A stretch of 64,000 bases of DNA from a virus: IMG/VR virus record IMGVR_UViG_3300042486_001390, positions 26,565 through 90,564 of that record. The stretch is one strand, 5' to 3'. Positions 1,991 through 18,610 of this stretch are shown here, in pieces (the stretch's first letter is position 1; every line of letters begins with the position of its first letter). The notes beneath the pieces were generated by a model. That model made no database searches, was not told the DNA's origin, and saw only the letters and a program-made list of their open reading frames with translations. A program made the translations under genes and the position numbers.

Positions 1991-2043
1991 TGACTAAACT
2001 TTTCTAGTTATATTGTACTATAAAAGATTAGTAAATGTGTACT

Positions 2044-2493: not shown

Positions 2494-2884
2494 TTAATTT
2501 TTCCTTTAAGATTTCACTATAAGCCTCAATTGGATTATAGTCTTCTATAGCCGTGTCGATAAATGGGCGGGCAGGAACATCTGTCACCGTCCCATCGTTA
2601 CGCTCTATTTGATACCCTTCATGGACAAGAGCGGCATGATCAGCCGTGTAACCGATTACTTTATAAACATCGGATACATCTTCAATAAATTGGCTATTTT
2701 TTAGCTCACCTGTGTCCACAATGTCCCGGGGTGAGCCAACTACACTACCGTTTTGACGCACGGTTTCCCGTGGCCAGTTCCATTTACTATCTTCTATCTG
2801 AAAGTTAATTTCTTGGGCAAACTCGGACACCATTTCCCCAAAAGCTTCAGTAGCTAAGTCTTTTCCTAGATTCCAGTTAATCAT
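2486..2884 (-). CDS. HK97 gp10-like tail completion protein
   Basis: Motifs IVDTGELKNS, AALVHEG and PARPFI are typical of the gp10 family. Confidence 0.75.
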   Translation of the reverse strand: MINWNLGKDLATEAFGEMVSEFAQEINFQIEDSKWNWPRETVRQNGSVVGSPRDIVDTGELKNSQFIEDVSDVYKVIGYTADHAALVHEGYQIERNDGTVTDVPARPFIDTAIEDYNPIEAYSEILKEKLNE

Positions 2885-2988
2885 TAAAAAATAGCTGCAA
2901 GTTATCCTTACAGCTATTATAACAACTTTAGACTATCCGTAATTGGATAGTCGACTCTTATGTCTCGTGGTGAGATATTAATTTATCA

Positions 2989-3345
2989 TTAAAGACTCAA
3001 ACAATCCTTTAAATTTAACGTTTCTCCATCCTTTTTGAATTTTGAGAAAAGTTGTAACTCACCGTTAATACGTTTTGTGGTTTGTTTATCAATAGTTCCT
3101 ATGCCTTGAGTTAAGGAATCCGAAAAAGTCTTACAGTCTTGCGTGTAAGTTTTTTGAATAAACCACTGCCCGCAATTGCAGTCTTTCTCGTCTATTATGT
3201 ATTTTATCTGAAAAAATACCCATTCTACGCCATGATAATTAATATTTGCCGAGAAATCTGAGTAACTCTTCCAAAACTTACACTCTCTTTCACTTGGACT
3301 AAAAACGTTTAGAACTTGTTCTTGAAACTCTTGAAATGATAGCAT
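2989..3345 (-). CDS. Hypothetical protein
   Basis: 118 aa ORF with GGGAG RBS. Confidence 0.55.
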   Translation of the reverse strand: MLSFQEFQEQVLNVFSPSERECKFWKSYSDFSANINYHGVEWVFFQIKYIIDEKDCNCGQWFIQKTYTQDCKTFSDSLTQGIGTIDKQTTKRINGELQLFSKFKKDGETLNLKDCLSL

Positions 3346-3364
3346 AATTACTCCCGTTGATTCA

Positions 3365-3595
3365 CTACTTTAGTTTAATAACTTGACCAGTCTCCAAACA
3401 CATAGCTTCAAAATACAATAACTTGTCTCGTTGATTGTAATACTCAAAAATTTTGGTAACATCTTCTTCTGTATTTATATTGGAAAAATACTGTTGAGGT
3501 ATTCCTTCTTTGTTGTATATAATGGCCCCGGTAGTAAAAGTTTGGTTTTTAGGATTGCCATCTTTATCTTCTTCTGCAAAGATTAATTGAAACAT
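3365..3595 (-). CDS. Hypothetical protein
   Basis: 76 aa ORF with AGAGG RBS. Confidence 0.55.
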   Translation of the reverse strand: MFQLIFAEEDKDGNPKNQTFTTGAIIYNKEGIPQQYFSNINTEEDVTKIFEYYNQRDKLLYFEAMCLETGQVIKLK

Positions 3596-3652
3596 AATTA
3601 CCTCTGTTGATTTGTGGTTAATAACTGATAACTGATAACTAAAATTACTCGG

Positions 3653-4423
3653 CTAATTGTCGCAGACTACCCGAAAACCATTATCGTAGTAGCGGTAGTC
3701 GCGACGGTCTTCGTAGCAGCGGTAAGCGGAACGGCAGTAAATCGGATAGTTGTACCAGGAACCACCCCGCAGACAACTATCTTTGCACCACTCCCAAACA
3801 TTACCATTCATGTCATATAGTCCCCAACCATTGGGCTTTTTCTGTCCTACGGGATGAGTTGTGTTATTAGAATTTCCGTCATACCAAGCATAATCTCCTA
3901 ACTGATTGACATCATCACCAAAATAATAGCGAGTGGTTGTCCCCGCACGACAAGCATATTCCCATTCCGCTTCTGTGGGTAGGCGATAGGTTTTCCCGGT
4001 TATTTGACTCAATTTCTGACAAAAGGCTTGAGCATCGTCCCAACTAACCTTTTCTACGGGATTTTGGGGATTATTTTTGAAGTAAGAAGGATTGGTTTCC
4101 ATTACCGCTTCATATTGTGCCTGAGTAATGGGATATTTTCCAATCTTAAAACTGTTGACTTTAACTTGGTGTTGAGGATTTTCATCATCACTAGCATCGG
4201 GATCACTATCAGGAGATCCCATGAGAAACTCACCTGCTGGTAAGCTTACCATTTCTAATGCGATTTGATTGGGTAGTTTTTCGGTCATCGTGAACTCCTT
4301 ACTCCTAAATGTTTTGTGTTCTAAACCCGCAAGTTTAGCTAACTCAACCAGATCATCTGTATCTGCATTAGCAAGACGCAGGTATAGTTCTTCAACTTCT
4401 CGAATAAAATCTGCATCACTCAT
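3653..4423 (-). CDS. FGE-sulfatase (SUMF1/CLec-fold) protein with DGR-like variable C-terminus
   Basis: Motifs FLMGS, YPITQAQY, RLPTEAEWEYACRAGT, GLYDMNGNVWEWC, RGGSW...GFRVV. Confidence 0.9.
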   Translation of the reverse strand: MSDADFIREVEELYLRLANADTDDLVELAKLAGLEHKTFRSKEFTMTEKLPNQIALEMVSLPAGEFLMGSPDSDPDASDDENPQHQVKVNSFKIGKYPITQAQYEAVMETNPSYFKNNPQNPVEKVSWDDAQAFCQKLSQITGKTYRLPTEAEWEYACRAGTTTRYYFGDDVNQLGDYAWYDGNSNNTTHPVGQKKPNGWGLYDMNGNVWEWCKDSCLRGGSWYNYPIYCRSAYRCYEDRRDYRYYDNGFRVVCDN

Positions 4424-4484
4424 TTTGTTAGTCCTAAATAGTTGATGATGATAATCAATAACTGATAACTAAACTATCACTTTA

Positions 4485-4679
4485 TTAACTGTTAACAAAC
4501 TGTTTATCTAGAAACTGTTTATCTAGATCGGCAAGCTGTTTATCTAGCTTTGCCCGCTTGTCGAGCAAATACTCATAGACTAATGAACATTCTTCGATAT
4601 GTCCCGCTTTTCTTAAGTCAATTAGCTGGCACTGGACGCAAAATAGCTCATGGTATGCGATTCGCTCTTGGTCGGTCAT
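4485..4679 (-). CDS. Hypothetical protein with its own promoter
   Basis: 64 aa ORF directly downstream of the repeated promoter/RBS block. Confidence 0.6.
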   Translation of the reverse strand: MTDQERIAYHELFCVQCQLIDLRKAGHIEECSLVYEYLLDKRAKLDKQLADLDKQFLDKQFVNS

Positions 4680-4750
4680 CGTAGTAACCTCTTTGTGTGT
4701 TTTGGTATATACCCAATATAACAGGTATATGTTTTCGTGTCAAGGGGTTT
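4676..4750 (-). promoter_or_regulatory. 75-bp promoter/RBS block, identical to 5942-6016
   Basis: Minus strand TTGACA-N17-TATATT with extended -10 TG, then AGAGG RBS and ATG; exact second copy at 5942-6016, diverged copy at ~5195-5265. Confidence 0.85.
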
Positions 4751-4940
4751 TTGTTTTTTTCAACCGATAACGACGACATCTTTCGGCGTTAGTCATTGAA
4801 TCAGGGTGGGAGGGTTTTCCTGCTGGATTACCAGTAAAGTGGTAATTGCAGTCTTTACAGCGATAACGCTGCTTTCCTGACACAGAGAACCCTTTTTTAG
4901 AGATTCTCTGTGATTGACATTTAGGACATTGCATTGTCAT
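4740..4940 (-). CDS. InsA-like zinc-ribbon small DNA-binding protein
   Basis: CPKC...GKQRYRCKDC zinc ribbon followed by TNAERCRRYR; no transposase catalytic domain. Confidence 0.65.
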   Translation of the reverse strand: MTMQCPKCQSQRISKKGFSVSGKQRYRCKDCNYHFTGNPAGKPSHPDSMTNAERCRRYRLKKTKTP

Positions 4941-5191
4941 TTAATGATAAATGATAGATGAGAATACTGTAACAGTAGATCAATCCATTGATCTTTGGTG
5001 TAACTTAACGGCTTCTCGTTAATGGTTGAAGTAGTTAGTCCTATAGCACTTGCAAGTGCTACTAATTCAGTAGATTTTAGCTTTTTAAGACTTTTTTCTG
5101 CTTTAACATATAGTTGTTCGTGTTCGTGAGAACCAATAGTGACATTTTTGAATTTTTGAGCAAATTCCTTTAATGTGTTTAACCCGTTCAT
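4937..5191 (-). CDS. Hypothetical protein, Rho-N/SAP-like helix-extended-helix
   Basis: LKKLKSTELVALASAIGL...TKDQWIDLL pattern. Confidence 0.45.
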   Translation of the reverse strand: MNGLNTLKEFAQKFKNVTIGSHEHEQLYVKAEKSLKKLKSTELVALASAIGLTTSTINEKPLSYTKDQWIDLLLQYSHLSFIIK

Positions 5192-5276
5192 CTGTTTAAC
5201 TCTTTTGTGTTTGTTTTTCTATATCCCCATTGTAGGGGATATGTTTTATGTCGTCAAGGGGTTTGGAAAATATTTT

Positions 5277-5945
5277 TCAAATAACCCCGTAGTCTGACAA
5301 TGCAAATACTGACTCCATGTCTCCTTTTTTTGCTTTTGCTTTTGCTTCTTTGACAACTTTCAAATCAGCTAAGTTTCTTTCTCTCATTTTGTCATCCATT
5401 TTGCGATAAGCTTTTTCGGCTTCTTTGAAACTTTTAAAGACCGAAATGCTACCCCATACTTCGGTCTGATAGCAATCTTGGAATAAACCAGATTGTAAAT
5501 CTTTTTTAATTTTAAAGATAATTCTCTCGAAAATGGTGTCGGTAACAGCACCTTCAAAACCGACTACATAAAAAGATTTTCCATTAACAGATAAATGTGC
5601 TATACAAGCGGCGCGTCCAGTATTGACACAGCCTAACGATTCCACTCCTACCACATAACTTAGGTGGCGAGATAACTTGTGTTGTAAAGACTGTTCTTTA
5701 CTGGTCGTCGCTTGTTTTTTGACAGTCTTAACTTGATTGACATTGACTGTGACTTTATATGTCTGTAGTTTTTCCATATATTTTTCTGACCAAGCCTTAG
5801 CCGCTTCATAGCTACGGCGGTAAGATACTTTATCATCAGGAAAATAACAGAACCACTTATCTTGATCAATTCCCACACCTTTTTTAATTTCAACTTTTTC
5901 TGCTGTTGCAACGTAGTGACCAGGTGCTTGTCTGTTAAATTTCAT
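5277..5945 (-). CDS. Hypothetical protein with its own promoter
   Basis: 222 aa ORF behind the repeated promoter block. Confidence 0.65.
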   Translation of the reverse strand: MKFNRQAPGHYVATAEKVEIKKGVGIDQDKWFCYFPDDKVSYRRSYEAAKAWSEKYMEKLQTYKVTVNVNQVKTVKKQATTSKEQSLQHKLSRHLSYVVGVESLGCVNTGRAACIAHLSVNGKSFYVVGFEGAVTDTIFERIIFKIKKDLQSGLFQDCYQTEVWGSISVFKSFKEAEKAYRKMDDKMRERNLADLKVVKEAKAKAKKGDMESVFALSDYGVI

Positions 5946-6016
5946 CGTAGTAACCTCTTTGTGTGTTTTGGTATATACCCAATATAACAGGTATATGTTT
6001 TCGTGTCAAGGGGTTT
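5942..6016 (-). promoter_or_regulatory. Second copy of the 75-bp promoter/RBS block
   Basis: Identical to 4676-4750. Confidence 0.85.
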
Positions 6017-6145
6017 AAGAAATATTTCTTAAACCCTGATGAGACTAGCTAAGATACATATTCACCAAATTAAAGATAGGTGGGATTAATAGCCTGAGTG
6101 GACAAATAACACCGTTATTTGTCCACTCAATAACGTTACCACTCC

Positions 6146-6388
6146 TCATCCACTCAACATGACAGAACGTACACATTGCAAAGTGAATAATGGTGCAGAA
6201 TTTACTTGGCTTTTTGCATACAAACACAGGAAGCTGTCAGCATAACTACCACAAGTGTAGTTAGGATCAGTAGTGATCCAGTTCCAGTGGTGTTCAATAC
6301 CTGCAACAGCTGCAGGCAGTGTATTGTACTGCCCAATTTCTAGAGATTGGTTGGTAGCGTCATTTTGCCATTCTATGTAAAAAGCCAT
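6146..6388 (-). CDS. Hypothetical protein with its own promoter
   Basis: 80 aa, AGAGGA RBS. Confidence 0.6.
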   Translation of the reverse strand: MAFYIEWQNDATNQSLEIGQYNTLPAAVAGIEHHWNWITTDPNYTCGSYADSFLCLYAKSQVNSAPLFTLQCVRSVMLSG

Positions 6389-6490
6389 AACTTTGTCCTC
6401 TTGTGTTTTGTTTGCTTGATTCTATCTTATGATATTCTCCCATAAATGTCAACTATCTGGGAGAATCTTTCTTGAACAAGTGTACTACTG
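6389..6490 (-). promoter_or_regulatory. Sigma70 promoter with ATTCTCCCA-N15-TGGGAGAAT operator
   Basis: TTGACA-N17-TAAGAT; the inverted repeat at 6434-6466 straddles the -35 box. Confidence 0.8.
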
Positions 6491-6508
6491 ACAACTGATA
6501 ACTAGAAG

Positions 6509-7441
6509 CTAACTAATCTCTAAGTCGTTAGCGTCAGCAAAGTCATAGATGTCCATGTACCAGTCTGACCATTCATCAGGGTCAGACAAATTGACTTTAT
6601 CGACTGACCACCGTGCAGTCTGTAAATATAAGCCTGCTTTCCACTTATCAGGATATGGTTGCTTTGCTTTCTCAGCATCGGTAGGGGTGAGGATAAACTG
6701 GAGAATATTTCCGTTCCATTTACCTTTTTTGATATTGTAAAAGCAAAACAAGGCATCAATTAAGTCGTCGCACTCTTGCTGGTAATCAGCAAAGTTTTCT
6801 GGCAGTTTAAACTTAGATTTTTTAGCCGTCGGTTTTTTATCTGATTTAGGTTCTGGTTTGTCTTCTAATTGACTGCTTTTTAATTGCTTATTTTCCTGTT
6901 CCAGTTGATAAATACGAGCCGTCAAGTGGTTAATAATCTCAGATCCTTCTTTATTCTCACGCTGTCTGAAATTGTGCATCTCTTCAAGAGATTGAGTCAA
7001 TTCAAGATTTTCCCATTTCAGTCTTTGAGCTAAATTAGTTAATTGCCGATTTTTTTCCCATAATTCCTCATTTGAAATAGAGTCCTTGGTAATTACAGGT
7101 TCACCTAACAACCAATCAACGAGAGCAACCTGTCTTTTTTCAGAGACTGATAACTCGTTATCAGTCTTTAACTCATTTTCTGGAAGGGTGTATTTGCAAT
7201 GATCTAAATAGTCCCACAAATTATCAAAGCCATCACAGTCACCCTGATCATAGTTTTCTAGTTTGTCCCAAAGCTTTTGGGTGTCATAGTAACCAACAAA
7301 TAGCCCTTGCGTGTGGACCGTAACACAATCACCGTTATCAGTGACTGACAATTTTTCTCCGAAACACTCTTGGCTAATTTGATTGAGGGTGCTTTGGAGA
7401 AGCCTGATAACTGTATCTCTTTTGTGCCATTCGATAGACAT
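6509..7441 (-). CDS. Hypothetical coiled-coil protein
   Basis: 310 aa with a central heptad region. Confidence 0.7.
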   Translation of the reverse strand: MSIEWHKRDTVIRLLQSTLNQISQECFGEKLSVTDNGDCVTVHTQGLFVGYYDTQKLWDKLENYDQGDCDGFDNLWDYLDHCKYTLPENELKTDNELSVSEKRQVALVDWLLGEPVITKDSISNEELWEKNRQLTNLAQRLKWENLELTQSLEEMHNFRQRENKEGSEIINHLTARIYQLEQENKQLKSSQLEDKPEPKSDKKPTAKKSKFKLPENFADYQQECDDLIDALFCFYNIKKGKWNGNILQFILTPTDAEKAKQPYPDKWKAGLYLQTARWSVDKVNLSDPDEWSDWYMDIYDFADANDLEIS

Positions 7442-7545
7442 GACTTAGTACCTTGTGTGTTTTGTTTGCCTAGATTTATCTTACAATATTCTCCCAATAA
7501 TATCAAGTATGTGGGAGAATTATTTCTGAGCAGATGTACTACGTC
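7442..7545 (-). promoter_or_regulatory. Sigma70 promoter with the same operator
   Basis: TTGATA-N17-TAAGAT; inverted repeat at 7488-7520. Confidence 0.8.
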
Positions 7546-7891
7546 TTTTTTTGTAGCGTTGGTGTTGATCCTGTTTTCGTTTAGGATCAAGTTCTCGATG
7601 TTCTAAACAATACCCAGAATTGTTTCTGGTATTAAGTGCCGTAAATTTACCCAAAACTAGGCAAGCAACGCAGTATTTGGTTTTAGGGATACTTATCTCT
7701 ACAGAGAAATTAATCCCTTTTATTTCAGGCTGTTTATCACAGATTAAAGCTACTCTTGTTAGGGCTATGCCCGACAAAGAGTAGTCTTGTAGCTTAACAA
7801 GATTTAAGTTAGTGTCGATATTGTCAATTTTTTGAATAGAAGATTTTAAAATTTTAAAATCTTCTGATTTAAGGGACAAGATTAGAATCAT
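7520..7891 (-). CDS. Hypothetical protein with Cys/His zinc-finger-like motif
   Basis: CVAC...GYCLEH plus a basic tail. Confidence 0.55.
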   Translation of the reverse strand: MILILSLKSEDFKILKSSIQKIDNIDTNLNLVKLQDYSLSGIALTRVALICDKQPEIKGINFSVEISIPKTKYCVACLVLGKFTALNTRNNSGYCLEHRELDPKRKQDQHQRYKKRRSTSAQK

Positions 7892-8001
7892 GGCAAATAC
7901 GCTGTCAATAGATTAAATTAAGCAGTTTAGTGACTTGCTTAGGTCACTGAATTTTAGATAATATAAACAAGCCTTCGGACTTGCTTGGTTCACCTTCTCT
8001 A

Positions 8002-8202
8002 TTAAAAATAGATATGGTCTGTCAGTGCATTTAGGGACTTTTGTTGTTCCCATGTTAGGGTAATTTCTTTTTTGAGCTTTAACTGCTCAATAGCTGATTC
8101 TACTTTTAGAATTTCTATAACAATTTTAGCTTTGGCACGATTGCCTTTAGTAATCTTAAGTTGAGCTTCCAATCGAGCCAGTTTAGTTTGCAATGTGTTC
8201 AT
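8002..8202 (-). CDS. Hypothetical protein; N-terminus paralogous to 10345..10806
   Basis: MNTLQTKLARLEAQL versus MNNLQSKLARLNAQL. Confidence 0.7.
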   Translation of the reverse strand: MNTLQTKLARLEAQLKITKGNRAKAKIVIEILKVESAIEQLKLKKEITLTWEQQKSLNALTDHIYF

Positions 8203-8300
8203 GCCGTCGTTCTGTCTCTTGTTTGCCTAGTCTTATCTTACAAAATTCTCCCAATAAAGTCAAGTATGTGGGTCAATCTTTTTTCTGAACGTTTGTACTA
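8203..8300 (-). promoter_or_regulatory. Sigma70 promoter with a partly degenerate operator
   Basis: TTGACT-N17-TAAGAT; ATTCTCCCA...TGGGTCAAT. Confidence 0.75.
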
Positions 8301-8311
8301 AGTATATTTAC

Positions 8312-8776
8312 TTGTTATCATTGTAGATACATTGTAGATAGGGTGATCTACAACCGAAACCGTTACCCTGTAAAGGTTCTAGACTTTGTTGATAATGTCG
8401 ATGTCTTATAAAGGAAAAAGATAAAAGAATAAACCAGACTGGACAATAAAAAGACTGCGAGAGATAACTAAGTTCAGCAGTAGAAAGAAAAAACCAAAGT
8501 CAGCAATAAATCTGTTAGTTTGTAGATAGATTGTAGATAAGGTTATTTACAATCGAAAGCCTTATAGGGTATAGATTTCAAGGTTTGTTTATCTTGTCGA
8601 CACTCTATACAGAGAGAGAAAAGATAGGGAGAAATAAACGAACTGGACAATAAGAGAAGGATAAAAAATCCTGACACAGGGAAATAGAGTAACAATATAA
8701 ACAAAGTCTAGAACCTATATATATCAATGCTTTTTGTTGTTGATCACCTTATCTACAATCTATTTACAAACTAACA
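8312..8776. repeat. Cluster of three multi-box 'arm' elements; 8513-8776 has 30-bp terminal inverted repeats
   Basis: TGTTAGTTTGTAGATAGATTGTAGATAAGG ... CCTTATCTACAATCTATTTACAAACTAACA (1 mismatch); a further arm at ~8312-8410. Confidence 0.85.
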
Positions 8777-8827
8777 AACTATAGCCCCCCTATGGGTCCA
8801 TAGGGGGTTTATCTTGAATGTCGGGGT

Positions 8828-8860
8828 GAAGACCCTCGCTTTTAGCGATGGGAGTGTCAA
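8828..8860 (+). mobile_element. IS200/IS605-family end remnant
   Basis: GAAGACCCTCGCTTTTAGCGATGGGAGTGTCAA: subterminal hairpin ending in TCAA. Confidence 0.6.
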
Positions 8861-8876
8861 ATGGGTTTAGGTATTT

Positions 8877-9582
8877 TTACCGTTTTTTGTCGTTTCTCAT
8901 AAGCATTCGACCGCCTCGCCATCCCCGTGCTTTTTCTCGTTCGGTTTCGAGTAGGTTAAATTTAGCTATATCGCGCTCTTTTTCGGCGTGTAATTCTTCG
9001 ATCACTAGCCGCTTATAGTCAAGCATCGAGTTTTTGCTGCTAAAGTCAGCGATCATAGTCTTTTGAGTTTTGATCAACTCCTCTAGTATTTGCTTCTCTT
9101 CGCTTAGTTTGACGATTTGGCTCTCAAGTTTGCCTTACCTCTGTAATTGCCTCGCTCTTGACGCGAAAACCAGCTAATGCGTGAAGGAATAATCGGACTC
9201 CTAGCTTAAGCACTTGAGAGGCTAACTCAGGATTATCCTTTGGCAACCACTTACAGATTAGGTCTTCTGGGATTAGATAAACCCCTTGCAACCCGCCCTC
9301 TGTTTGAATTTGAGCCTGTTTTAGCAATCCTAATCCTAACCCCATTGTGTTACCCCCTTGTAACCCGCTCCCTGTTTGAATTTGAGGGCGATTTGGAGAT
9401 TCAGAAGTTACCCCCTTGCTATCTTCTTTAAATAGCCGGTTTAACCGCATAGTGATAGCGTTGTGGCTTTTCCCGGACATACGAGCATATCCTTTGATTG
9501 AGGCAAAGCTTTCACCGGTCTGAGTGTCGATAATTAATTCAATACCGTCGTGATCAAAACGTTGTAAAATTAGATCAGCCAT
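8877..9582 (-). pseudogene. Antirepressor/KilA-like DNA-binding protein split by a frameshift near 9130
   Basis: N-terminal DGIELIIDTQTGESFASIKGYARMSG; the alternative frame LESQIVKLSEEKQ... is open into ORF 8877..9077. Confidence 0.55.
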
Positions 9583-9732
9583 GTTAGCCTCTACAGTAGG
9601 TTGACTTAGTTAGTCCCTCGCGTCAACGAGGGCATATTAATATTGTACTACATTAAATAATCAATTATTCCCCAATATAGAAAATTCTATATTGGGGAAT
9701 CTGGACACAGAAAAAACGAAAATCAGGGAACC

Positions 9733-9826
9733 TGCTAACAAAAACAACAAACTAATAAAACCTATATACATCAATACTTTTCACTGTTAATACACTGCTA
9801 ACAATCTGTTAACAGTGTATTAACTA
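9733..9826 (-). repeat. Diverged copy of the multi-box arm element
   Basis: AACAA boxes, central AAAACCTATATACATCAATACTTT, TGTTAA/TTAACA boxes. Confidence 0.55.
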
Positions 9827-9855
9827 AAAACCCGTCAATCAATTGACGGGTTTTG
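9826..9855. terminator. Bidirectional intrinsic terminator
   Basis: AAAAACCCGTCAAT-CA-ATTGACGGGTTTT. Confidence 0.75.
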
Positions 9856-9856
9856 A

Positions 9857-10177
9857 TTAATTAAATTTTTTGTACTCTTGTAGTATTAGGTCGGTTGCCT
9901 CCTCAATTCGGTTTCCTTTTGATAGTAGTTTAAGAATTTTAGCCAAAACTTGTCTGACTCGTTCTTTACCTATTCCTAATTCTGCTGTAGTTGATGCCAC
10001 TCTAAAGCGATAGTTCCGATGCCGGGAAGTAACAGGCACTGGGTCAAGATTGTTGTTTTTTGCCCACACCAGATAGATGTAGGCTTGTCTGGAAGTTATC
10101 ACTTTTGTTTTTCTAGTCTTAATTTTTGAAAACATTTGGCGGATCGTGCCATCAAGATCAAGTAATAAAGCTTTCAT
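9857..10177 (-). CDS. Hypothetical DNA-binding protein with a HAD motif-I fragment at its start
   Basis: MKALLLDLDGTIR, then a sigma-r4-like ELGIGKERVRQV. Confidence 0.45.
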   Translation of the reverse strand: MKALLLDLDGTIRQMFSKIKTRKTKVITSRQAYIYLVWAKNNNLDPVPVTSRHRNYRFRVASTTAELGIGKERVRQVLAKILKLLSKGNRIEEATDLILQEYKKFN

Positions 10178-10204
10178 TTTTTCAAATTTTCCCCTACTTA
10201 AGCT

Positions 10205-10298
10205 TCAGGACATCCCTAGTAGGGATTAGATAAAGCGCACGCGACTACGACTATAGTACATAGTTTCAATTCCTAATAGGAGTTCTTTGTGCAGCTAC
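10205..10298 (-). CRISPR. Phage-borne mini-array / crRNA-like unit (type I-D-like repeat, ~21-nt spacer, degenerate second repeat)
   Basis: Minus strand GTAGCTGCACAAAGAACTCCTATTAGGAATTGAAAC (36 nt, hairpin plus ATTGAAAC handle), then TATGTACTATAGTCGTAGTCG, then CGTGCGCTTTATCTAATCCCTACTAGGGATG. Confidence 0.65.
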
Positions 10299-10344
10299 CT
10301 TAAGTAAATCACTTAATTCTTGATAAGTGTTTTGCCGTGCCACT

Positions 10345-10806
10345 TTAGGCACTGGCACGCTGAGAAAAGCGGTAACATACCTCTTGATAGGAGATGCTTT
10401 GGATTTCTCCTTTGACATTTTCAAATACCCAGTAATCGCCGTCGCTGTCTTGGTAGATAGCATTTAAATTAATAGGAATTTCAAAAGTTGCTGCCACCTC
10501 TCCTTTTTTGCCTTCAAATTTTCGGCTTACAGGCTCGATAAACTTCTTAGTGAATCCACCGTGCTTAATATCTTTTTCGGGTGAGATTTTCGCTACCCAT
10601 GCTCTCCAAGCGCGGCGAGGAGTTTCTAGGGTAAGAGTGCGAGTTTTAGGCAATCTTTTAAAGCTTACGATAGTATTTTTCTCGATTGCTTCGATAGCGG
10701 CTTCTACCGCTAAGATTTTTTCAATTAGTTTACGCTGGTTTCTCCGTCCTCTAGTAATCGCTAGTTGAGCGTTTAGTCGAGCCAGTTTAGATTGTAGGTT
10801 ATTCAT
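10345..10806 (-). CDS. Hypothetical protein with its own promoter
   Basis: 153 aa; AGAGGA RBS; upstream TATATT and a GTGACA-N10-TGTCAC palindrome. Confidence 0.7.
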   Translation of the reverse strand: MNNLQSKLARLNAQLAITRGRRNQRKLIEKILAVEAAIEAIEKNTIVSFKRLPKTRTLTLETPRRAWRAWVAKISPEKDIKHGGFTKKFIEPVSRKFEGKKGEVAATFEIPINLNAIYQDSDGDYWVFENVKGEIQSISYQEVCYRFSQRASA

Positions 10807-11141
10807 TTGATTTGTCCTCTTTGTTTTGCTTACATTCCTAATATAGATCGATCCTCTTGATGAGTGTTGGCAAAGTGTGACAGTTTATCAAGTGTCACTG
10901 TGGATACTTTTGTACTGGACTGATTGAATATCCGATTTATTGCCGATTTTCAGTATATTTGGTTGTTATACGTCCATTTTTATTGATTATTACCGTTGAG
11001 AATATCACTAAGCATTTTTAACTACTATAGAAGTTCCTTCCTTTAGATCAACTTAATTTTATCGGTTTATTTTTTGGTTACACGGCACAAAATTTGTTAA
11101 TTTGGCATAATATTGATTAATCGAGATTACATTTTAATTTA

Positions 11142-11831
11142 ATGCCAAGACGAAAAAAAGTACCACCAAATAACTCAACCCCAACCCCTAAAAGCCCTGT
11201 ATCAGGTAAGGCTAGTCGGTTTGATAATCTAATACCAAATGTACCTATCGAGTTTGGTCATTATCCAATTTGGGAAAGACAACCCTACGAAATGTCTCAA
11301 TGGTTTGAAAAATTTCAAGCTTTTTATATCCATCTTCCTGCGGGGTACAGGACATTAAATCGTGCTTTTAATGATTGCGCTATGTCGGCAGGTGAGGAAA
11401 TTCCAAAGACTGAAAGTAAACGCAGTATCACCGTTCCAGAACAATGGCAATTAGCCTATAAAATTTATCGCTGGGAAGATCGAGCTAAAGCATATTGGCT
11501 TAAAAAAATACAAGATCAAGAGGCTTATAGAGATGGAATTTTAAGCCAAATAATAGATAAAAGCATAAAGAATGCTTTTAAAACACTCGAAAAAAGCGAA
11601 GAGATAAACAATCGTTCGCTAGACGATCCTAACGGTAATTGGAGTCACAAAGACGCTGTGATCATGACTAAAGCTGTCACGGAAATAGTAGAAAAAGCAT
11701 TAGGGCTTGACACTGTAGAATATGCTATTAGTATTTTACAAAAAAATGGGTTGGCCGCAATCGACCCCGACGGGAACCTAATAGGACAGCCAACAGATAA
11801 AGGTAATTTAGAAGATGAAACTATCTTATAG
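11142..11831 (+). CDS. Putative terminase small subunit
   Basis: Overlaps terL; WERQPYE...YRWEDRAKAY pattern seen in terS-like proteins. Confidence 0.6.
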   Translation: MPRRKKVPPNNSTPTPKSPVSGKASRFDNLIPNVPIEFGHYPIWERQPYEMSQWFEKFQAFYIHLPAGYRTLNRAFNDCAMSAGEEIPKTESKRSITVPEQWQLAYKIYRWEDRAKAYWLKKIQDQEAYRDGILSQIIDKSIKNAFKTLEKSEEINNRSLDDPNGNWSHKDAVIMTKAVTEIVEKALGLDTVEYAISILQKNGLAAIDPDGNLIGQPTDKGNLEDETIL

Positions 11832-13452
11832 AAATCTATCTAAGATAAAAGCAGCGACCGAAAAATATAAACTTGTTAATACCAAAGAAGAAATTGTTTT
11901 CCCTCAATTACAAGAGGGAAAACAAGCTTTATTTGGGGAAATTGATGCTGATGTAATCTTCTATGGCGGAGGCGCAGGAAGTGGCAAGAGTGCCGGGCTA
12001 TTAATTGATTTTGCCCGTCAAGAATTTATTAGCAATCCTGACTATCGGGCTGTTATATTTCGTCGGACGTATCCTGAATTTACTCAAGCAGGTGGACTAA
12101 TAGATGAAAGCCAAAAAATCTATCAAGCAGTGAAAGGTAATTTTATTGAAAAGCCTCCAGGGTGGCGATTTCCATTTGGATCAAAAATATCTTTTAGACA
12201 TTTGCAATACGAAAAAACTGTCTATGTTTATCAAGGGGGACAAATTGCAAGGATAGGTTTTGACGAATTAACCCATTTTACAGAAGAACAGTTTTTCTAT
12301 CTTCTCTCTAGAAACCGTTCAGTATCGGGAATTAAACCCGCAGTTAGGGCAACTTGTAACCCCGATGCTGACTCTTGGGTAGCTAGTTTTATCTCTTGGT
12401 GGATCGACCCTAAGACTGGGTATGCTATTGAAGAAAGAGGGGGAATAGTTAAATATTTTATTAGACGAGAAAACATAATCCACTGGGCTGATACTAAAGA
12501 AGAACTAATCGATAAATTTAGTCTTAAAGATGAACTTTTTGACCTTATTCCTAAAGATAAAAGAGAAAAGTTTTTATCAAATACAGATACTAATATTACA
12601 CCAGATAATCTGATTAAGAGTTTTACTTTTATTCCAGCTACGATTTTTGATAATCCAGCTTTAATTAGGGTTAATCCTACTTATTTGGCTAACCTTTACG
12701 CTTTACATCCTATTGAGCGGGAAAGACTTCTCAGAGGTAACTGGAAAGTTAAATATGAAGCTGGTACGGTATTTGATCGGACTTGGTTTGAGATTCTCGA
12801 TAAAATCCCCGATAGTTGGAAATTAATAGGTAAAGTGAGATTCTGGGATTTAGCGGCAACTGCTAAAGAGAATGCTGAGAATTATCATTGCTATACCAGT
12901 GGCACTCTTGTCTATAAATACCAAAGAATTAAGAATACACTACCAGATTCAACCGAGATTAAGGAATTTACTTATGTGATTGCGGACAATATCTGTGAGC
13001 AGAAAAAGGTAGGGGAAGTTGAATTAATGCTTAAAAATACTGCTGAATTGGATGGGAAAACTGTAGCTGTAAGATGGGAACAAGAAGGGGGATCGAGCGG
13101 TAAATTTGTTGAAAATACCATTACTAATGTAATTAGAGAAAATCATCCGAACCATGACGTTAAAGCGATCGTACCTCAAGGGGATAAGCTAACGCGAGCT
13201 TTACCAGTAGCCACGGCAGCTAGTCGGGGACAAATCTTTATCTTAAGAGATGGGACGTGGAACACTCGGTTTTTAAATGCCTGCCAGGGTTTTGATGGTA
13301 GCAAAAAAACACCCCCGACTAACGACATCGTAGATAGCCTATCGGGAGCATTTTATTCCCTTGAAAATGAGTTTCAAGAACATGAGAGAATTATTAGCAC
13401 GATTGTTACTTCTGCTCCTGTTAATCGGTTTAGAAGCGGTTTTAGGGGTTAG
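11815..13452 (+). CDS. terL: Terminase large subunit
   Basis: Walker A YGGGAGSGKS, Walker B FDELTHF, ATCNP, nuclease WDLA...DIVDSLSGA. Confidence 0.95.
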   Translation: MKLSYRNLSKIKAATEKYKLVNTKEEIVFPQLQEGKQALFGEIDADVIFYGGGAGSGKSAGLLIDFARQEFISNPDYRAVIFRRTYPEFTQAGGLIDESQKIYQAVKGNFIEKPPGWRFPFGSKISFRHLQYEKTVYVYQGGQIARIGFDELTHFTEEQFFYLLSRNRSVSGIKPAVRATCNPDADSWVASFISWWIDPKTGYAIEERGGIVKYFIRRENIIHWADTKEELIDKFSLKDELFDLIPKDKREKFLSNTDTNITPDNLIKSFTFIPATIFDNPALIRVNPTYLANLYALHPIERERLLRGNWKVKYEAGTVFDRTWFEILDKIPDSWKLIGKVRFWDLAATAKENAENYHCYTSGTLVYKYQRIKNTLPDSTEIKEFTYVIADNICEQKKVGEVELMLKNTAELDGKTVAVRWEQEGGSSGKFVENTITNVIRENHPNHDVKAIVPQGDKLTRALPVATAASRGQIFILRDGTWNTRFLNACQGFDGSKKTPPTNDIVDSLSGAFYSLENEFQEHERIISTIVTSAPVNRFRSGFRG

Positions 13453-13636
13453 TGGTAGTCCATCCACATTTCCAAACGATACCAGAGGTGTTAATGTTAA
13501 TACGCTCTATTTCAATTGGATTGTCGTTATTGCTATCAAAATAATTACACCAATGCCAGATAGCTTCTGTTTTTGATTCCGATACAATAAGAAGACTAAA
13601 TGATGTAACTGAATCTTTAACTAGGTACAAATTCAT
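13442..13636 (-). CDS. Hypothetical protein
   Basis: 64 aa ORF at the end of a minus-strand operon. Confidence 0.5.
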   Translation of the reverse strand: MNLYLVKDSVTSFSLLIVSESKTEAIWHWCNYFDSNNDNPIEIERININTSGIVWKCGWTTTNP

Positions 13637-13654
13637 AATAGTTGTAAAAATATT

Positions 13655-13945
13655 CTAATTAATTTGATTTACTAGAGACTCTCGATAAAGTCTTTCGCGT
13701 TCTATCCAGAAACGAGCAGAAGGTACGCCTAAAGCTAATTCCATTTTATAAGCAATACAAACAGTAATTTCTTCTTTACCTTTTATGAGTTGATTAATAG
13801 TCTTTTTCGGCAACCCCATGCGACTAGCAAATTCAGTTCTAGTTATTTTTCTTTCTTTTAGGATTTCACTAAGGGTTTCTCCTGGTGGAGAAACAAAATC
13901 TGATGTATATTTATTTTCAATAGTATTAGTCATAGATTTGATCAA
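13655..13945 (-). CDS. HigA-like HTH antitoxin/regulator (orphan)
   Basis: SPPGETLSEIL...EFASRMG...TINQLIKG...LALGVPSARFW. Confidence 0.8.
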   Translation of the reverse strand: MIKSMTNTIENKYTSDFVSPPGETLSEILKERKITRTEFASRMGLPKKTINQLIKGKEEITVCIAYKMELALGVPSARFWIERERLYRESLVNQIN

Positions 13946-13948
13946 TAG

Positions 13949-14482
13949 TTATAAATAATCATAAACAAAATAATTAACAACTTTAATAGCTTCCTTGACT
14001 CTTGGAATAAAGTCAATATCTAAGCTGATAAACATAAAAGGGTCTTCTGTTTTTTTTGTGTTTTTTAGTTTATGATAGCACGAAATATCTAGTAATAAAA
14101 TATCTCCTGCTTTTAAAACCAATCTTTGTGTATCTTTTCTTTGGACTAATAAAGAGTTTATTTGATCATCCATACTTTTAAAGGGAGTATAATTTTTTAA
14201 GAGTTTTTCTAAAGTATTATTGTTTACTGTAGAAGAGTAGAGTTCATAGTTGTCACTCTGAACAACTAAAATAATTGAATATTTTCTACCCTTATAAATG
14301 TCGTCAGTGTGCCAATTTACTCCTATCGTTCCCCATGAAGCATAAGAGTCTTCGCACGTATCATAAAGAGGGTGTATATTGTTATGTGTTACGAAACACT
14401 TAGTGGTATAACAAGAATCAGTTGCTATTTTGTTTAACCTGTCTAAATTGTGATATTCGCCTAATTTATACAGAGGTTTCAT
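13949..14482 (-). CDS. 2OG-Fe(II)-oxygenase/cupin-like protein
   Basis: WHTD...LKAGDILLLD..CYH, an HxD...H triad. Confidence 0.55.
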   Translation of the reverse strand: MKPLYKLGEYHNLDRLNKIATDSCYTTKCFVTHNNIHPLYDTCEDSYASWGTIGVNWHTDDIYKGRKYSIILVVQSDNYELYSSTVNNNTLEKLLKNYTPFKSMDDQINSLLVQRKDTQRLVLKAGDILLLDISCYHKLKNTKKTEDPFMFISLDIDFIPRVKEAIKVVNYFVYDYL

Positions 14483-14531
14483 TTTTTATTTGGTTGATGA
14501 TTGTTGACTGATAGCTGATAACTGATCGAAA

Positions 14532-15059
14532 CTAAGTAAATAATCTTGATGCAATACTAAGTAAATACACCCATTCTTCTTCAAGCATTAACATCATTCC
14601 AGAAGGATCGGGATTGGTAAGTAAGCAAAAGCTTACTTCGTCTATGCGATCACTGTCGTAGAATAACTCAATATCAGTATTTGGAAATACTGTCATAAAG
14701 CCAAATTTAAACTTGGCATTTTGACGATTTTCGCAGGTTAGTGTAGCTGAATGACTTGGATTCTCCCACGGAATACGATCTCTAAAGCTTTGATAAGTTA
14801 TTTTTAGTTTCCAGTCAATAACTGAGGGAAAGTCTTCTTTAAAATGTTCTTCCTTTACCCATTTAGCAATTTCGTCGATTATCCATTCTTGATCTTTTTG
14901 GATGAAGTAGTGAACGCCTTCTGAATATCGAAACGGGAATAACTTTGTTTCGTACCAGTTTAACTTGAACCCTTGCGGGTCTGAGTCAATTTTAGGGAAT
15001 TGCCCTATATCCATCATTGTCATGGTTTTTACTCCTAAATAAATTGTTTTTACTGACAA
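14532..15059 (-). CDS. DUF6876-like protein (likely start ~15023)
   Basis: YSEGVHYF...WIIDEIA; paralog of 18219..18626. Confidence 0.6.
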   Translation of the reverse strand: MSVKTIYLGVKTMTMMDIGQFPKIDSDPQGFKLNWYETKLFPFRYSEGVHYFIQKDQEWIIDEIAKWVKEEHFKEDFPSVIDWKLKITYQSFRDRIPWENPSHSATLTCENRQNAKFKFGFMTVFPNTDIELFYDSDRIDEVSFCLLTNPDPSGMMLMLEEEWVYLLSIASRLFT

Positions 15060-15281
15060 CTAATGATTGAGCAGATAATTTTCTAGTTCTTCTTCCGTGT
15101 AATTACATACAGGACGGTAATTTAATTCTTTATGGCAAAGATCGTAAAATTCAGCTTTACTGCCTGCTTTTTCCCATATCCAATGAATCATCTCACCGTC
15201 AATTCCTTGATTAATTGCCCACATATCCGCTTCAATTTTCTCAGATTCATCTTTCCAGTTAGAATTTTGTTGCTGTGTCAT
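15060..15281 (-). CDS. Hypothetical protein
   Basis: 73 aa ORF. Confidence 0.55.
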   Translation of the reverse strand: MTQQQNSNWKDESEKIEADMWAINQGIDGEMIHWIWEKAGSKAEFYDLCHKELNYRPVCNYTEEELENYLLNH

Positions 15282-15333
15282 GATACTTAACTCTTAGTGG
15301 TTTTTACTGACAACTGATAACTGACAACTGATA

Positions 15334-16650
15334 CTATTTTTTGAGAATGAGTTTAGGCTTTTTGCTAAACTCAACTGGTAGGTTTTTTTGCTGGCAGACA
15401 GTCCGGCAATCTGTCCATCTTTTACCGACCTTAGCAAGATAGGAGTCTTGGTTCCACTCCACCTTGTACCCTGCTTTTTCGCAGGCTGTCTTATAAGGAA
15501 ATTGAGATTCCTTCTGTCGAGCAGTAATCTGCTCTTCTCTAGCCTTTTCTAAGGCTTCTAGCTCGTTTTTGCGAACCTTAAAGGCTATGGCTTCGATTAC
15601 TGCTCGATGCAGTTCGGTAGCATCTTTCGGAAAGGATTCATAGCCATTTCTTAAATCGCGGCTACGGACTACTACCCGTCTTTCTTCGCCACTCGTAAGC
15701 CTTATTTGAATCCCTAGAGATAGGGATTCTTCGACAAGTTGGGGGAATTTAGCCCCAAAATCTTCAATCAATTTTTGATTTTCCGAAACTTCCGAAACTT
15801 TAGGAGCAGGTTCGGGTTCGGAAGCCGCTTCTACTTCTACTACTTTAGGATTTTCTATATCCCATTTTTTTCTGGTCCAATAACCAGAATAATGGTTTAA
15901 TAATACCCACTCTTTTTCTGATCTGGGTTTTGGAGGATCGGTTAACTGTTTGGCTTCCCCGCTGGGAAGCTGGTAGTTTACGACCCGAACGGTCACATAA
16001 CCGCCATGGGATCTCGATCCCATTCCGTCAGATGAAGGGGTATCTGACCCCTCGGAATAGAACCTTTCGGTTCTTTCATTGATTATTATGCCGTGTGTCA
16101 CGGCATAATAATCGCTATTTTCATAACGGTCGTATTTTTTTAACCTGTCTTTGATTGACAGGTAGTTGCCCCACTCTTTTTCCCGCGCTTCTTCCCGCGC
16201 TTCTACGGCTCTTTTTTCCGCTTTTTCTCTTTCGGCTTGGCCGGCAATCCAAGCCTCTTTCGCTTTCTTAGAAGCCTCTTTAGAAGCCTCTAAAGAGTCC
16301 AGATAATTAATGATTATCTGGTTGATTTCATCTTCTTCGAAACCTACTGAGTAAGTTAGGGAATTGAGATCAATTCCCCAAGCACCTGCCCACAGACTTC
16401 CGTCTGTAGTCATTTCCTCCTCGCTCGGTAAATATAAACCAGCGTAATCGCCGGTTAGTTGAGCCATTTCTGCCGTAACAGGAATCTCTGCCCAACTGGC
16501 AGTAGGCAAAGGGACGAGGCGGTCTTCAAACCCGTCATTGTACCAGAAGCACTCCCCTTCTCCTTGTACCGCGATCACTTTGCTTTCAAACAACAGACCT
16601 CCGTCCTCAGTGTCAAAGGGGATGTATGCGACGGTGATTTGAGATTTCAT
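15334..16650 (-). CDS. Hypothetical protein with its own promoter
   Basis: 438 aa, charged helical segments, somewhat higher GC. Confidence 0.75.
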   Translation of the reverse strand: MKSQITVAYIPFDTEDGGLLFESKVIAVQGEGECFWYNDGFEDRLVPLPTASWAEIPVTAEMAQLTGDYAGLYLPSEEEMTTDGSLWAGAWGIDLNSLTYSVGFEEDEINQIIINYLDSLEASKEASKKAKEAWIAGQAEREKAEKRAVEAREEAREKEWGNYLSIKDRLKKYDRYENSDYYAVTHGIIINERTERFYSEGSDTPSSDGMGSRSHGGYVTVRVVNYQLPSGEAKQLTDPPKPRSEKEWVLLNHYSGYWTRKKWDIENPKVVEVEAASEPEPAPKVSEVSENQKLIEDFGAKFPQLVEESLSLGIQIRLTSGEERRVVVRSRDLRNGYESFPKDATELHRAVIEAIAFKVRKNELEALEKAREEQITARQKESQFPYKTACEKAGYKVEWNQDSYLAKVGKRWTDCRTVCQQKNLPVEFSKKPKLILKK

Positions 16651-16750
16651 AACTTTGTCCTCTTGTGTTTTGCTTACTCTCTTATCTTATGACATTCTCC
16701 CAATAAAGTCAAGTGGGTGGGAGAATCTTTTTTGAGCAGATGTACTACTT
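16651..16750 (-). promoter_or_regulatory. Sigma70 promoter with TTCTCCCA/TGGGAGAA operator
   Basis: TTGACT-N17-TAAGAT; inverted repeat at 16694-16726. Confidence 0.8.
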
Positions 16751-16865
16751 ATTAATCCCAAATAGTTGATAATGATAACTGATAACCTTAATCTTCTATG
16801 CGCCAATCTGCATTTGCTACAGCATCATCTTATTAGGTTTCACCGTTGAGTACTGATTGGACAAC

Positions 16866-17132
16866 CTACCCCTTTATCTGTTTTACACACAAATATCCTC
16901 TATTTCCGTCAGAACGACGGAAATTCAATTCGGTAAATGTTCCACACCTCCAAGATGGAAGCAATAATACTTTTGGGTTTTCGTGTCCTTGTGATGTAAG
17001 GTAGTGATTAGCTTTGTGGAGTGTTTGACCTACTCCAAACACTGCCATTCCGATTAAGGTAGCAATCAAAAGATACGATGCGTTCTCTAGCCTTGCAATT
17101 GTTCCTAGTATTTTTCTGGATTCCTCGTTCAT
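16866..17132 (-). CDS. Small membrane protein (start MNEES at 17132)
   Basis: One hydrophobic helix; its GAGG RBS lies inside the hammerhead. Confidence 0.6.
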   Translation of the reverse strand: MNEESRKILGTIARLENASYLLIATLIGMAVFGVGQTLHKANHYLTSQGHENPKVLLLPSWRCGTFTELNFRRSDGNRGYLCVKQIKG

Positions 17133-17200
17133 GCTATCCTCATCAGTGCCTAGAATTGAGCCGCTAGGCATACGGGAAAGGTTCCCGTTTCGGATCGGCT
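17133..17200 (-). ncRNA. Type II hammerhead ribozyme
   Basis: Minus strand AGCCG ATCC GAAA C GGGAA-CCT-TTCCC GTA TGCCTAG-CGGCTCAATT-CTAGGCA CTGATGA GGAT: all core nucleotides, three stems, and a loop-I/5' flank pseudoknot. Confidence 0.92.
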
Positions 17201-17585
17201 AGGGCTTTTGTAAAAACAAACAGCCTAAAACATTTGAGGGGTTAGACTCATCCCGGACGATTGCACCGGGGGCAAGGCAGTCCGTCCGTCCTTGTTTACT
17301 AGCGGCCGCCGCCACTAGCCCAGAGACAATGTAGAAAGTTTCCCCGTCTGCATCTGGTAGCCCCTCAATATCCCCGTAAATAACGGTTTCTACTGGGATA
17401 CCGTCAATGGGTTCTGCGGGTTCGTTGGACATTTTAACTCGCGGGAGAATCCCCGATGCGGGAATTTCCTTAAGAATCACAATCTTCTCTTTGTTTCCCA
17501 GAAACTGTTTCTTTGCATCTTGGGTGATGCCAGCTTCTTTGTTTAATATGGTGATAGTGTGAGGGGTTGCGTTGACAATAGCCAT
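17199..17585 (-). CDS. Conserved phage protein (N[A/L]TPH family)
   Basis: MAIVNATPHTITI...YIVSGLVA...VRDE; AGGAG RBS before 17585. Confidence 0.7.
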   Translation of the reverse strand: MAIVNATPHTITILNKEAGITQDAKKQFLGNKEKIVILKEIPASGILPRVKMSNEPAEPIDGIPVETVIYGDIEGLPDADGETFYIVSGLVAAAASKQGRTDCLAPGAIVRDESNPSNVLGCLFLQKP

Positions 17586-17640
17586 GGTTTTTACTCCTAA
17601 ATAATTGTTAGCTGACAACTGATAACTGATAACTAATTTA

Positions 17641-18168
17641 TTAATCACAAACTACCCGAAAACCAATATTACGCCAGCGACATTTTTCAAAATAGTAACT
17701 GAGTTGTGCCGCACAACATTCATAGGAGCAGGTATCGAATCCGCCCCCACGGGGAACGTTTTGACACCATTCCCAGACGTTGCCGTGCATATCGTACAAT
17801 CCCCAATTGTTAGGTAATTTCTGACCCACAGGATGAGTTATTAATCCAGAATTATCTTCGTACCAAGCGTAATCTTTTAGCTGATCGAAATCATTACCAA
17901 AGCTAAATAGGGTTTCTGTACCAGCGCGACAAGCATATTCCCATTCTGAATTTGTAGGTAGGCGATAGTTTTTCCCTGTTATTCGTCTCAATTTCTGGTA
18001 AAAAGCTATAGCGTCGTCATAACTAACTTGTTCTACTGGATTTTGGGGTTTGTGCATAAAATAAGAGGGGTTGTTTCCCATTACCTCTTGATATTGTTCT
18101 TGAGTTATTGGATATTTCCCAATTTTAAAGGTTACGTTCGGAATCTCTATCATTTCAATCTCAATCAT
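17641..18168 (-). CDS. Second FGE-sulfatase/CLec-fold protein
   Basis: RLPTNSEWEYACRAGT, GLYDMHGNVWEWC, RGG...IGFRVVCD. Confidence 0.9.
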   Translation of the reverse strand: MIEIEMIEIPNVTFKIGKYPITQEQYQEVMGNNPSYFMHKPQNPVEQVSYDDAIAFYQKLRRITGKNYRLPTNSEWEYACRAGTETLFSFGNDFDQLKDYAWYEDNSGLITHPVGQKLPNNWGLYDMHGNVWEWCQNVPRGGGFDTCSYECCAAQLSYYFEKCRWRNIGFRVVCD

Positions 18169-18218
18169 TTTTTTGGCTCCTAAATAATTTGTTTTTACTG
18201 ATAACTGACAACTGATAA

Positions 18219-18554: not shown

Positions 18555-18610
18555 GATTTTGACTCCTAATAGGTTGCTAATAACTGATAGCTGATAACTG
18601 ATAACTGGTA

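Follow-up and report, generated by a model that had tools for sequence, protein, structure and literature searches.

RNAs that imitate the repeats of host CRISPR (short palindromic repeats, clustered and regularly interspaced) systems have been described in several forms. RNA anti-CRISPRs (Racrs) are viral solitary repeat units, 2,103 of which were reported from a search that included IMG/VR3; they are proposed to bind Cas6 and Cas7 into aberrant complexes, and some lie in operons beside anti-CRISPR genes, as does RacrIC1, which shares one bicistronic RNA with AcrIC5 (Camara-Wilpert et al. 2023, PMC10651486). Cracrs, with 219 candidates reported for subtypes V-A, I-F, I-E, I-C and I-B in Pseudomonadota, Bacillota and Actinomycetota, carry two degenerate repeats around a short pseudo-spacer, and Cascade with fewer backbone subunits is expected to form on them (Liu et al., bioRxiv 10.1101/2024.10.29.618823). 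Type I-D loci have regulatory mini-arrays aimed at the promoters of cas10d or of toxin-antitoxin cargo, with targets adjacent to a protospacer-adjacent motif (PAM) and a seed of 10 nucleotides (nt), and viral regulatory mini-arrays are described in the same work (Shmakov et al. 2023, PMC10120712). Here we analyze an element of this kind in a phage of Microcystis, a cyanobacterium that forms blooms. The window, a stretch of 64,000 nt, comprises bases 26565-90564 of IMG/VR record IMGVR_UViG_3300042486_001390, a phage genome of 90,564 base pairs (bp) rated complete by CheckV. In a 167-nt gap between two minus-strand genes, it carries a module composed of a 36-nt repeat mimic (unit 1) and, farther downstream, a second hairpin (unit 2) that lacks the adjoining handle; the sequence reads exactly as the initial annotation described it. 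With a probability of about 0.42, we take this module to be an RNA decoy of the Racr type directed against the type I-D system of the host.

Like the Racrs, the module is a repeat mimic in a non-coding intergenic region of a phage without cognate cas genes, and its host has the cognate subtype. Unlike them, it is not solitary, because a second partial unit follows 38 nt downstream, whereas the Racr rule as published admits none within 100 bp (PMC10651486); the SRUFinder rules, as set out there, would class the module as a mini-array or discard it. It also differs in its subtype, I-D, in its cyanobacterial host and in having no promoter of its own. With the Cracrs it shares its location in a phage, two degenerate units around what would be a short pseudo-spacer, and the shortened Cascade that would be expected to follow. 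However, the Cracr set as summarized in the preprint includes neither subtype I-D nor cyanobacteria, and the Cracr hallmark of at least nine PAM-proximal bases in common with the spacer of a host CreA/CreR element was not found here in 17 Microcystis genomes. A pseudo-spacer shorter than normal spacers (17-21 nt), and with it the spacer of ~21 nt that had been annotated, is obtained only when a degenerate second repeat is taken to begin with the weak 5' part of unit 2; the measurable quantity is the distance from handle to second hairpin, which is 38 nt in the window and 41 nt in relatives with a 3-nt insert, as against 41 nt in the host mini-array.

The host I-D mini-arrays (PMC10120712) have the same architecture as the phage module, but they are host genes located beside their own targets, and the module has the hairpin and handle in common with them and not the body. 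Virus-borne mini-CRISPR arrays, as described in PMC11656645, likewise consist of repeat-spacer-repeat without cas genes and use host machinery, in their case against rival viruses; their repeats are those of the host and their spacers match related viruses, whereas the repeats of the module are degenerate and no target was found for it. Finally, a known I-D-directed anti-CRISPR protein comes from an archaeal virus and binds Cas10d; the module would also be directed at I-D, but as an RNA and in bacteria.

We aligned unit 1 with the Microcystis I-D repeat DR1. The last 19 nt of the unit are identical to the 3' end of DR1 at 17 positions, including all eight of the handle, which bears out the annotation of the unit as an I-D-like repeat. 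The two differences constitute the outer pair of hairpin 1, where C-G has become U-A on both sides with the stem geometry kept. The hairpin of unit 2 is identical to that of the host repeat variant DR1b. More widely, the 19-mer of hairpin plus handle corresponds to the 3' end of CRISPR repeats across cyanobacteria, in at least 120 stretches, and the stem variant of the phage was not present among the cyanobacterial repeat matches listed. The 5' parts of the two units, in contrast, align with the 18-nt 5' part of DR1, a 37-nt repeat, no better than shuffled sequences do (shuffles scoring as well: unit 1, 2000 of 2000; unit 2, 1359 of 2000). According to a review of type I-D systems (PMC10212523), Cas6d cleaves after the stem-loop and leaves an 8-nt handle. 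Judged by sequence, the module mimics exactly the parts of the repeat that Cas6d and Cascade would read.

According to Yang et al. 2015 (PMC4428289), DR1 and its variant are confined to positions downstream of I-D cas clusters. An array with variable spacers of 33-43 nt beside I-D cas genes was not found in the phage, which has one unit-like site in 90.6 kb, no cas6, and a body that is the same in its relatives. With as many as three mismatches allowed, the window contains the 36-mer only once, none of 100 shuffles gave any match, and hairpin plus handle occurs a single time in the entire 90,564-bp record. Since the module in addition recurs in 30 other viral contigs, chance is excluded as its origin.

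These contigs were collected by IMG/VR scans, which need exact words: a scan with the 19-nt hairpin-plus-handle pattern returned 48 stretches, 21 of which contained this module, and two further scans added nine copies. Together with the window's own, there are 31 viral loci with 19 distinct sequences. The module extends from within unit 1 to the G-rich stretch ahead of the next gene, and its sequence is kept while the flanks change, with at least three upstream contexts and at least four different downstream genes. The handle is identical in 31 of 31 loci. In a comparison of the 18 loci with the upstream gene in common, conservation is highest for hairpin plus handle, with a mean pairwise identity of 0.97 and two of 19 columns variable; the value is 0.92 for the stretch from the 38-nt body to the end of hairpin 2 (11 of 57 columns variable), 0.91 for the 5' part of unit 1, which the cut would discard, and 0.73 for the upstream coding sequence. 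Both stems are paired in all 16 distinct rows, unit 2 with six pairs; the stems have undergone just two changes, both C-to-U with a wobble pair retained, and the loops occur in three forms. The decay is patterned: the handle and the stems are kept, and changes fall in the loops, at wobble positions and in the part that Cas6 discards. In other words, what the host machinery needs (stem, cut site and handle) has been preserved, and what it does not need (the 5' part of unit 1, the loops and the second handle) has drifted. An open reading frame (ORF) at 10266..10463 overlaps the module, and the initial annotation had allowed that the region might be conserved merely as coding sequence; this ORF is broken in three loci in which hairpin and handle are intact, so the conservation of the region is not coding, and the related phages keep both stems in a non-coding module.

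The host of the phage is Microcystis, because type I-D spacers of this genus match the phage and Microcystis genomes share multi-copy stretches with it. Four complete Microcystis genomes provided 285 spacers from their I-D arrays, of which 29 match the phage over at least 80% of the spacer length, compared with none of 285 shuffled spacers. Three of the four arrays contribute (12/122, 8/68 and 9/50, and 0/45 in the fourth), and the matched protospacers carry G and T at positions -3 and -2 (GTN) in 21 of 29 cases, in agreement with the published I-D PAM, GTN/GTH (PMC10212523). This phage lineage thus faces a real and current threat from the I-D system of its host. Among the CRISPR systems of Microcystis, type I-D is the most common, reported from 12 of 14 strains (PMC4428289). 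I-D loci with DR1 arrays were found in Microcystis, and csc2 (Cas7d), taken as the marker of an I-D locus, is present in 7 of the 17 species representative genomes that our Microcystis searches covered. All 17 genomes contain multi-copy stretches 85-95% identical to parts of window 1-20000. Neither cas6 nor a tyrosine integrase nor a serine recombinase or resolvase was found in the phage, which therefore depends on host enzymes; the idea that the module is an attachment site was rejected, as such a role is unlikely in a phage without integrase or resolvase. Separately, window segments 3653-4423 (minus strand; a gene with an FGE-sulfatase domain), 4305-4423, 13672-13946 and 19573-19823 are 75-95% identical to multi-copy Microcystis sequences in 17 of 17 genomes, and the last of them, which has the look of a miniature mobile element, adjoins the tRNA gene of the phage (19435-19507).

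We propose that the module would be transcribed together with the leftward gene block and that host Cas6d would then cleave after each of the two hairpins. These cuts would release an RNA of ~57 nt that starts with a genuine 8-nt 5' handle, continues with a short body that does not target, and ends in a 3' hairpin. Such an RNA could occupy Cas6d and the handle-loading subunits of Cascade; shortened complexes unable to attack the phage would form, and I-D immunity would be blunted. The logic of two cuts, with a required first and a dispensable second handle, put forward in the initial annotation, is mirrored by the host's own I-D mini-arrays. Immediately upstream there is no promoter-like site, so the simplest view is that the module belongs to the transcript of the leftward block; promoter-like sites of the quality of the nearest one (Table 1) numbered 2, against 3.9 expected.

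Table 1. Positions of the module, its parts and its neighbours in the window
Feature	Position	Strand	Remarks
Unit 1, 36-nt repeat mimic	10298..10263	minus	5' part, hairpin and handle
Unit 1, 5' part, 17 nt	10298..10282	minus	unlike any of the host repeats compared
Unit 1, hairpin, 11 nt	10281..10271	minus	4-bp stem and 3-nt loop
Unit 1, handle ATTGAAAC, 8 nt	10270..10263	minus	intact
Stretch from handle to second hairpin, 38 nt	10262..10225	minus	first ~17-21 nt, pseudo-spacer; remainder, putative decayed 5' part of unit 2
Unit 2	10226..10212	minus	11-nt hairpin 10224..10214 plus two flanking A-U/U-A pairs; no handle after it
Conserved module tail	10213..10187	minus	ends at the G-rich ribosome-binding region of the next gene
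Upstream flank	10316..10296	minus	exact 21-nt match to a host nucleotidyltransferase antitoxin gene
Hairpin at the end of the 153-aa upstream ORF	10358..10337	minus	ORF stop codon in the loop; read from the sequence, folded
Upstream gene, 153 amino acids (aa)	10345..10806	minus	first gene of the leftward block
Downstream gene, 106 aa	9857..10177	minus	other genes at this place in relatives
Nearest promoter-like site	11051..11024	minus	ahead of the 153-aa gene; 9/12 consensus positions; a pointer only

Several observations weigh against a decoy. Besides the lack of a promoter directly upstream, the stem of unit 1 is weaker than that of the host, with two G-C pairs instead of three, and is missing from the minimum-energy structure of the 185-nt region. 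The best identity of the 5' part of unit 1 to the 5' half of any host repeat is 8/17 among the matches listed. In Rfam, nothing in the module region reached the gathering level; the best match, CRISPR-DR63, scored 15.3 bits against a threshold of 37 (E = 9.6). Two-sided covariation was absent among the 16 distinct rows of the phage family, whose sequences are too alike for that test to give a signal. Four metatranscriptome runs yielded one to three low-depth contigs each, which carry no information on ends, strand or level, may derive from DNA and lend no support to transcription or processing. Moreover, 14 nt of the body are invariant and the spacing of the conserved second hairpin hardly varies; a single repeat would suffice for a pure decoy, which hints that the module does more than act as one. 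As to where the region occurs, at least half of its sampled words are contained in 14 lake-water DNA metagenome runs from 2016-2024, one of which may be the source sample, and six RNA runs contained small shares of it.

Two further structures were noted. A lower stem around hairpin 2 forms in the window's fold and is absent from that of a relative, and it was dropped. In window 10244-10266 (minus strand), the last three nt of the handle and the pseudo-spacer can pair as a helix of 6-8 bp, six pairs of which are invariant; both end pairs are present in nine of 16 distinct rows and both absent in seven, with no two-sided change.

We searched for a target that the module could address as a guide, and in the data searched there is none above chance. 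The phage's own genome gave 16 pseudo-spacer matches against 15 for the control. The initial annotation had connected the pseudo-spacer with the phage's own promoters through the motif TGTACTA; this connection is not supported, as the motif is not enriched, with 11 occurrences in the window where 6.6 are expected and a count that high in 8 of 100 shuffles. A seed match next to a GTN PAM in host cas loci or related viral loci, the other target suggested there, did not emerge above chance either: in 185 kb of cas loci we found one match to PAM plus 9 nt, inside a 92-aa ORF, where ~0.7 is estimated by chance, and in the viral loci of the set the pseudo-spacer matched the module itself only. Within a single Microcystis genome, an 18-nt pattern gave one match against 10 for the control, and over the 17 genomes PAM plus 12 nt with up to one mismatch gave 22 against 17. 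Neither PAM-proximal identity of at least nine bases to a host regulator spacer nor a PAM-adjacent match at a cas or toxin promoter exceeded chance in these genomes.

Outside Microcystis, 50,697 phage records contained no protospacer, and plasmids gave only weak, repeat-like partial matches in three records. Exact 16-, 17- and 20-mers in IMG/VR returned family members plus 29 and 2 unrelated matches, none of which extend; the two 17-mer matches outside the family lack a GT PAM. Four matches to PAM plus 17 nt in metagenomes do not extend (22-24 of 38 positions identical). The missing target fits a decoy and speaks against a guide.

The likeliest of the alternatives is a guide function. The module RNA could act as a regulatory false guide of the Cracr type, in which a shortened Cascade loaded with it represses a host promoter through a 9-12-nt seed without cleavage; that promoter could belong to the cas genes or to a toxin or cargo gene guarding the I-D locus. 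We consider this explanation rather unlikely. In its favour, look-alikes exist in the host. Genome G002 has at its I-D locus, in the orientation opposite to that of the cas genes, a mini-array (G002:C1:2802218-2802330, minus strand) that consists of a decayed hairpin with intact handle, 41 nt, and a perfect hairpin with a one-change handle. The phage module repeats this geometry (handle, 38/41 nt, hairpin, second handle spoiled). Mini-arrays of this type are present in 5 of the 17 Microcystis genomes (L248-L252). A second kind, at the I-D locus of G015 (L244 ~11190-11300, minus strand), has cas3 on one side and, on the other, a small ORF together with a nucleotidyltransferase cargo gene upstream of cas10d. 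About 65 nt upstream of the G002-type mini-array there is a GTC-flanked 10-nt copy of the start of its pseudo-spacer, and target and pseudo-spacer change together between genomes. Such I-D mini-arrays are described as regulating cas10d or toxin-antitoxin cargo (PMC10120712), and phage copies of mini-arrays are described for the five subtypes of the Cracr set (Liu et al., bioRxiv 10.1101/2024.10.29.618823). The first four nt of the phage pseudo-spacer are invariant. Taken together, the conserved second hairpin, the invariant body stretch and the host look-alikes speak for a guide.

The likeness to the host mini-arrays does not extend to the seed or the body. The phage seed was found in host mini-arrays of none of the 17 genomes (28-nt pattern, up to three mismatches), and an alignment of the phage body with that of the host mini-array was not significant, since 930 of 2000 shuffles scored as well. 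Seed position 5 is T or A depending on which of two phage groups is considered, and the PAM-anchored matches barely differ from the control. What stands out is GTT followed by the first 11 nt of the pseudo-spacer, which occurs at seven sites in 6 of the 17 genomes. The recurring 11-nt site lies within an element of ~220 nt (L253, L254, L256, L259, L264, L268, L272) that is present in dozens of copies or more in every genome, has variable flanks and belongs to no known RNA family in Rfam. In some copies, the GTT-flanked match falls inside promoter-like sequence; however, none of it is at a cas or toxin promoter. We treat the site as a lead and not as a finding, because chance matches are estimated at ~0.15-0.3 per genome. 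That a false guide would steer a shortened Cascade to this site in the high-copy element, or to a cas or toxin promoter of unsampled strains, appears unlikely. Considered jointly, decoy and guide make an anti-CRISPR RNA role directed at I-D probable, although well short of certain.

The module could instead be an inert leftover or recombination linker, that is, a captured fragment of a host CRISPR locus that persists at a cassette boundary. The 21 nt of the upstream flank, which overlap the first three nt of unit 1, suggest captured host DNA: they match exactly in 10 of the 17 Microcystis genomes, at one site each, near the 3' end of a 97-aa nucleotidyltransferase antitoxin gene (Pfam NTP_transf_2) that is followed by a HepT gene, and there is no similarity on either side of the match (L183-L192). 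The phage's other stretches 85-95% identical to Microcystis genomes, the variable flanking genes, the relative L017, in which the module breaks off directly after the pseudo-spacer, and the RNA runs, which gave no support for expression, point the same way. Random decay, however, is not what the 31 loci display, with the handle unchanged at 8/8 and the stems always paired, and the module is oriented in the direction of the surrounding genes. We therefore regard an inert linker as quite unlikely.

Its location inside one block, with a gene on either side and its own promoter lacking, would also suit an mRNA processing site, at which host Cas6d would cut the early polycistronic RNA between the genes and protein-bound hairpins would set stability or translation; the conserved tail indeed reaches the ribosome-binding region of whichever gene comes next. 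On the other hand, phage expression would then rely on a defence enzyme whose locus marker, csc2, is present in just 7 of the 17 genomes, and the perfectly kept handle would be left unexplained. Such a function is very unlikely. It is highly improbable that the module is a one-spacer viral mini-array in which the full 38 nt serve as a true spacer, with host Cas proteins, against a rival phage or plasmid: this length lies within the 33-43 nt reported for Microcystis I-D spacers (PMC4428289), and viral mini-arrays are described as mostly targeting related viruses (PMC11656645), but no protospacer was found in any of the collections searched, and the would-be spacer is the same in all relatives rather than varying. 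Least credible of all is that the region encodes the C-terminus of a small protein through ORF 10266..10463, whose stop codon lies within the handle: in 18 of 31 loci this frame begins with a start codon and stays open over 59-68 codons, but it has 16-36 codons in 10 further loci and 8, 10 and 17 codons without a start in the remaining three, where 1-nt and 28-nt deletions spare hairpin and handle, its sequence coincides in part with the end of the 153-aa gene, which is read in a different frame, it has no Pfam match, and conservation extends ~95 nt beyond its stop codon.

The genes on either side of the module gave nothing above the Pfam threshold and nothing in PHROGs; the 153-aa gene has no family match, and the 106-aa gene has only weak, sub-threshold Pfam matches, including sigma-70 region 4. 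The start of the 106-aa ORF resembles that of a longer gene of relatives L008, L011 and L048 and then diverges, and in L002 the same downstream start runs into an early stop, so that the cassette looks rearranged. At the hairpin that ends the 153-aa ORF, another upstream context shows a different stem sequence. The phage as a whole has no DNA match to phage isolates, and its terminase has distant relatives only (at most 40% identity). The initial annotation's statement that the phage has no cas genes is correct for type I-D, for which cas6 is missing, and needs amending outside the window (G000:C1 ~6465-8487; L283 465-806 and 802-2487), where a 561-aa TnpB/Cas12f-like protein with OrfB_IS605 and Cas12f1-like TNB domains is encoded. 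This gene is followed by five 36-nt direct repeats spaced 71-75 nt, which are unrelated to the I-D unit.

Other imitations of I-D repeats were noted in the viral contigs. Nine Microcystis-type contigs (L006, L007, L010, L012, L019, L021, L023, L032 and L046) carry a different mimic, with hairpin and handle in the loop of a long inverted repeat, and L021 and L032 have both elements. Further viral contigs contain I-D-type repeat pieces (L004, L013, L029, L030, L043 and L044; L022, L026, L033 and L042; L045); among them are several two-repeat mini-arrays, a contig with 16 repeats, and a family with two handle-bearing units 9 nt apart, which in L029 lie beside a tRNA-like end.

The decoy and guide functions proposed in the initial annotation have both been published, and the principle is not new. 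New here are the I-D subtype, the cyanobacterial phylum, the two-hairpin layout and the direct connection with the intense targeting of this very phage by I-D; a full-text term search of one literature library, judged by titles and abstract openings, gave no description of an element of this kind in a phage of Microcystis. A small RNA able to turn I-D off could serve where I-D is used for genome editing. If the module were a false guide, it would be the first of subtype I-D and the first from a cyanobacterial phage, and host transcription would be rewired through the host's own immune complex. If it is a decoy, RNA anti-CRISPRs would extend to a new subtype and a new phylum, and such an RNA countermeasure, in a phage family widespread on Microcystis, would help to account for the persistence of these phages in blooms where CRISPR systems target them heavily.

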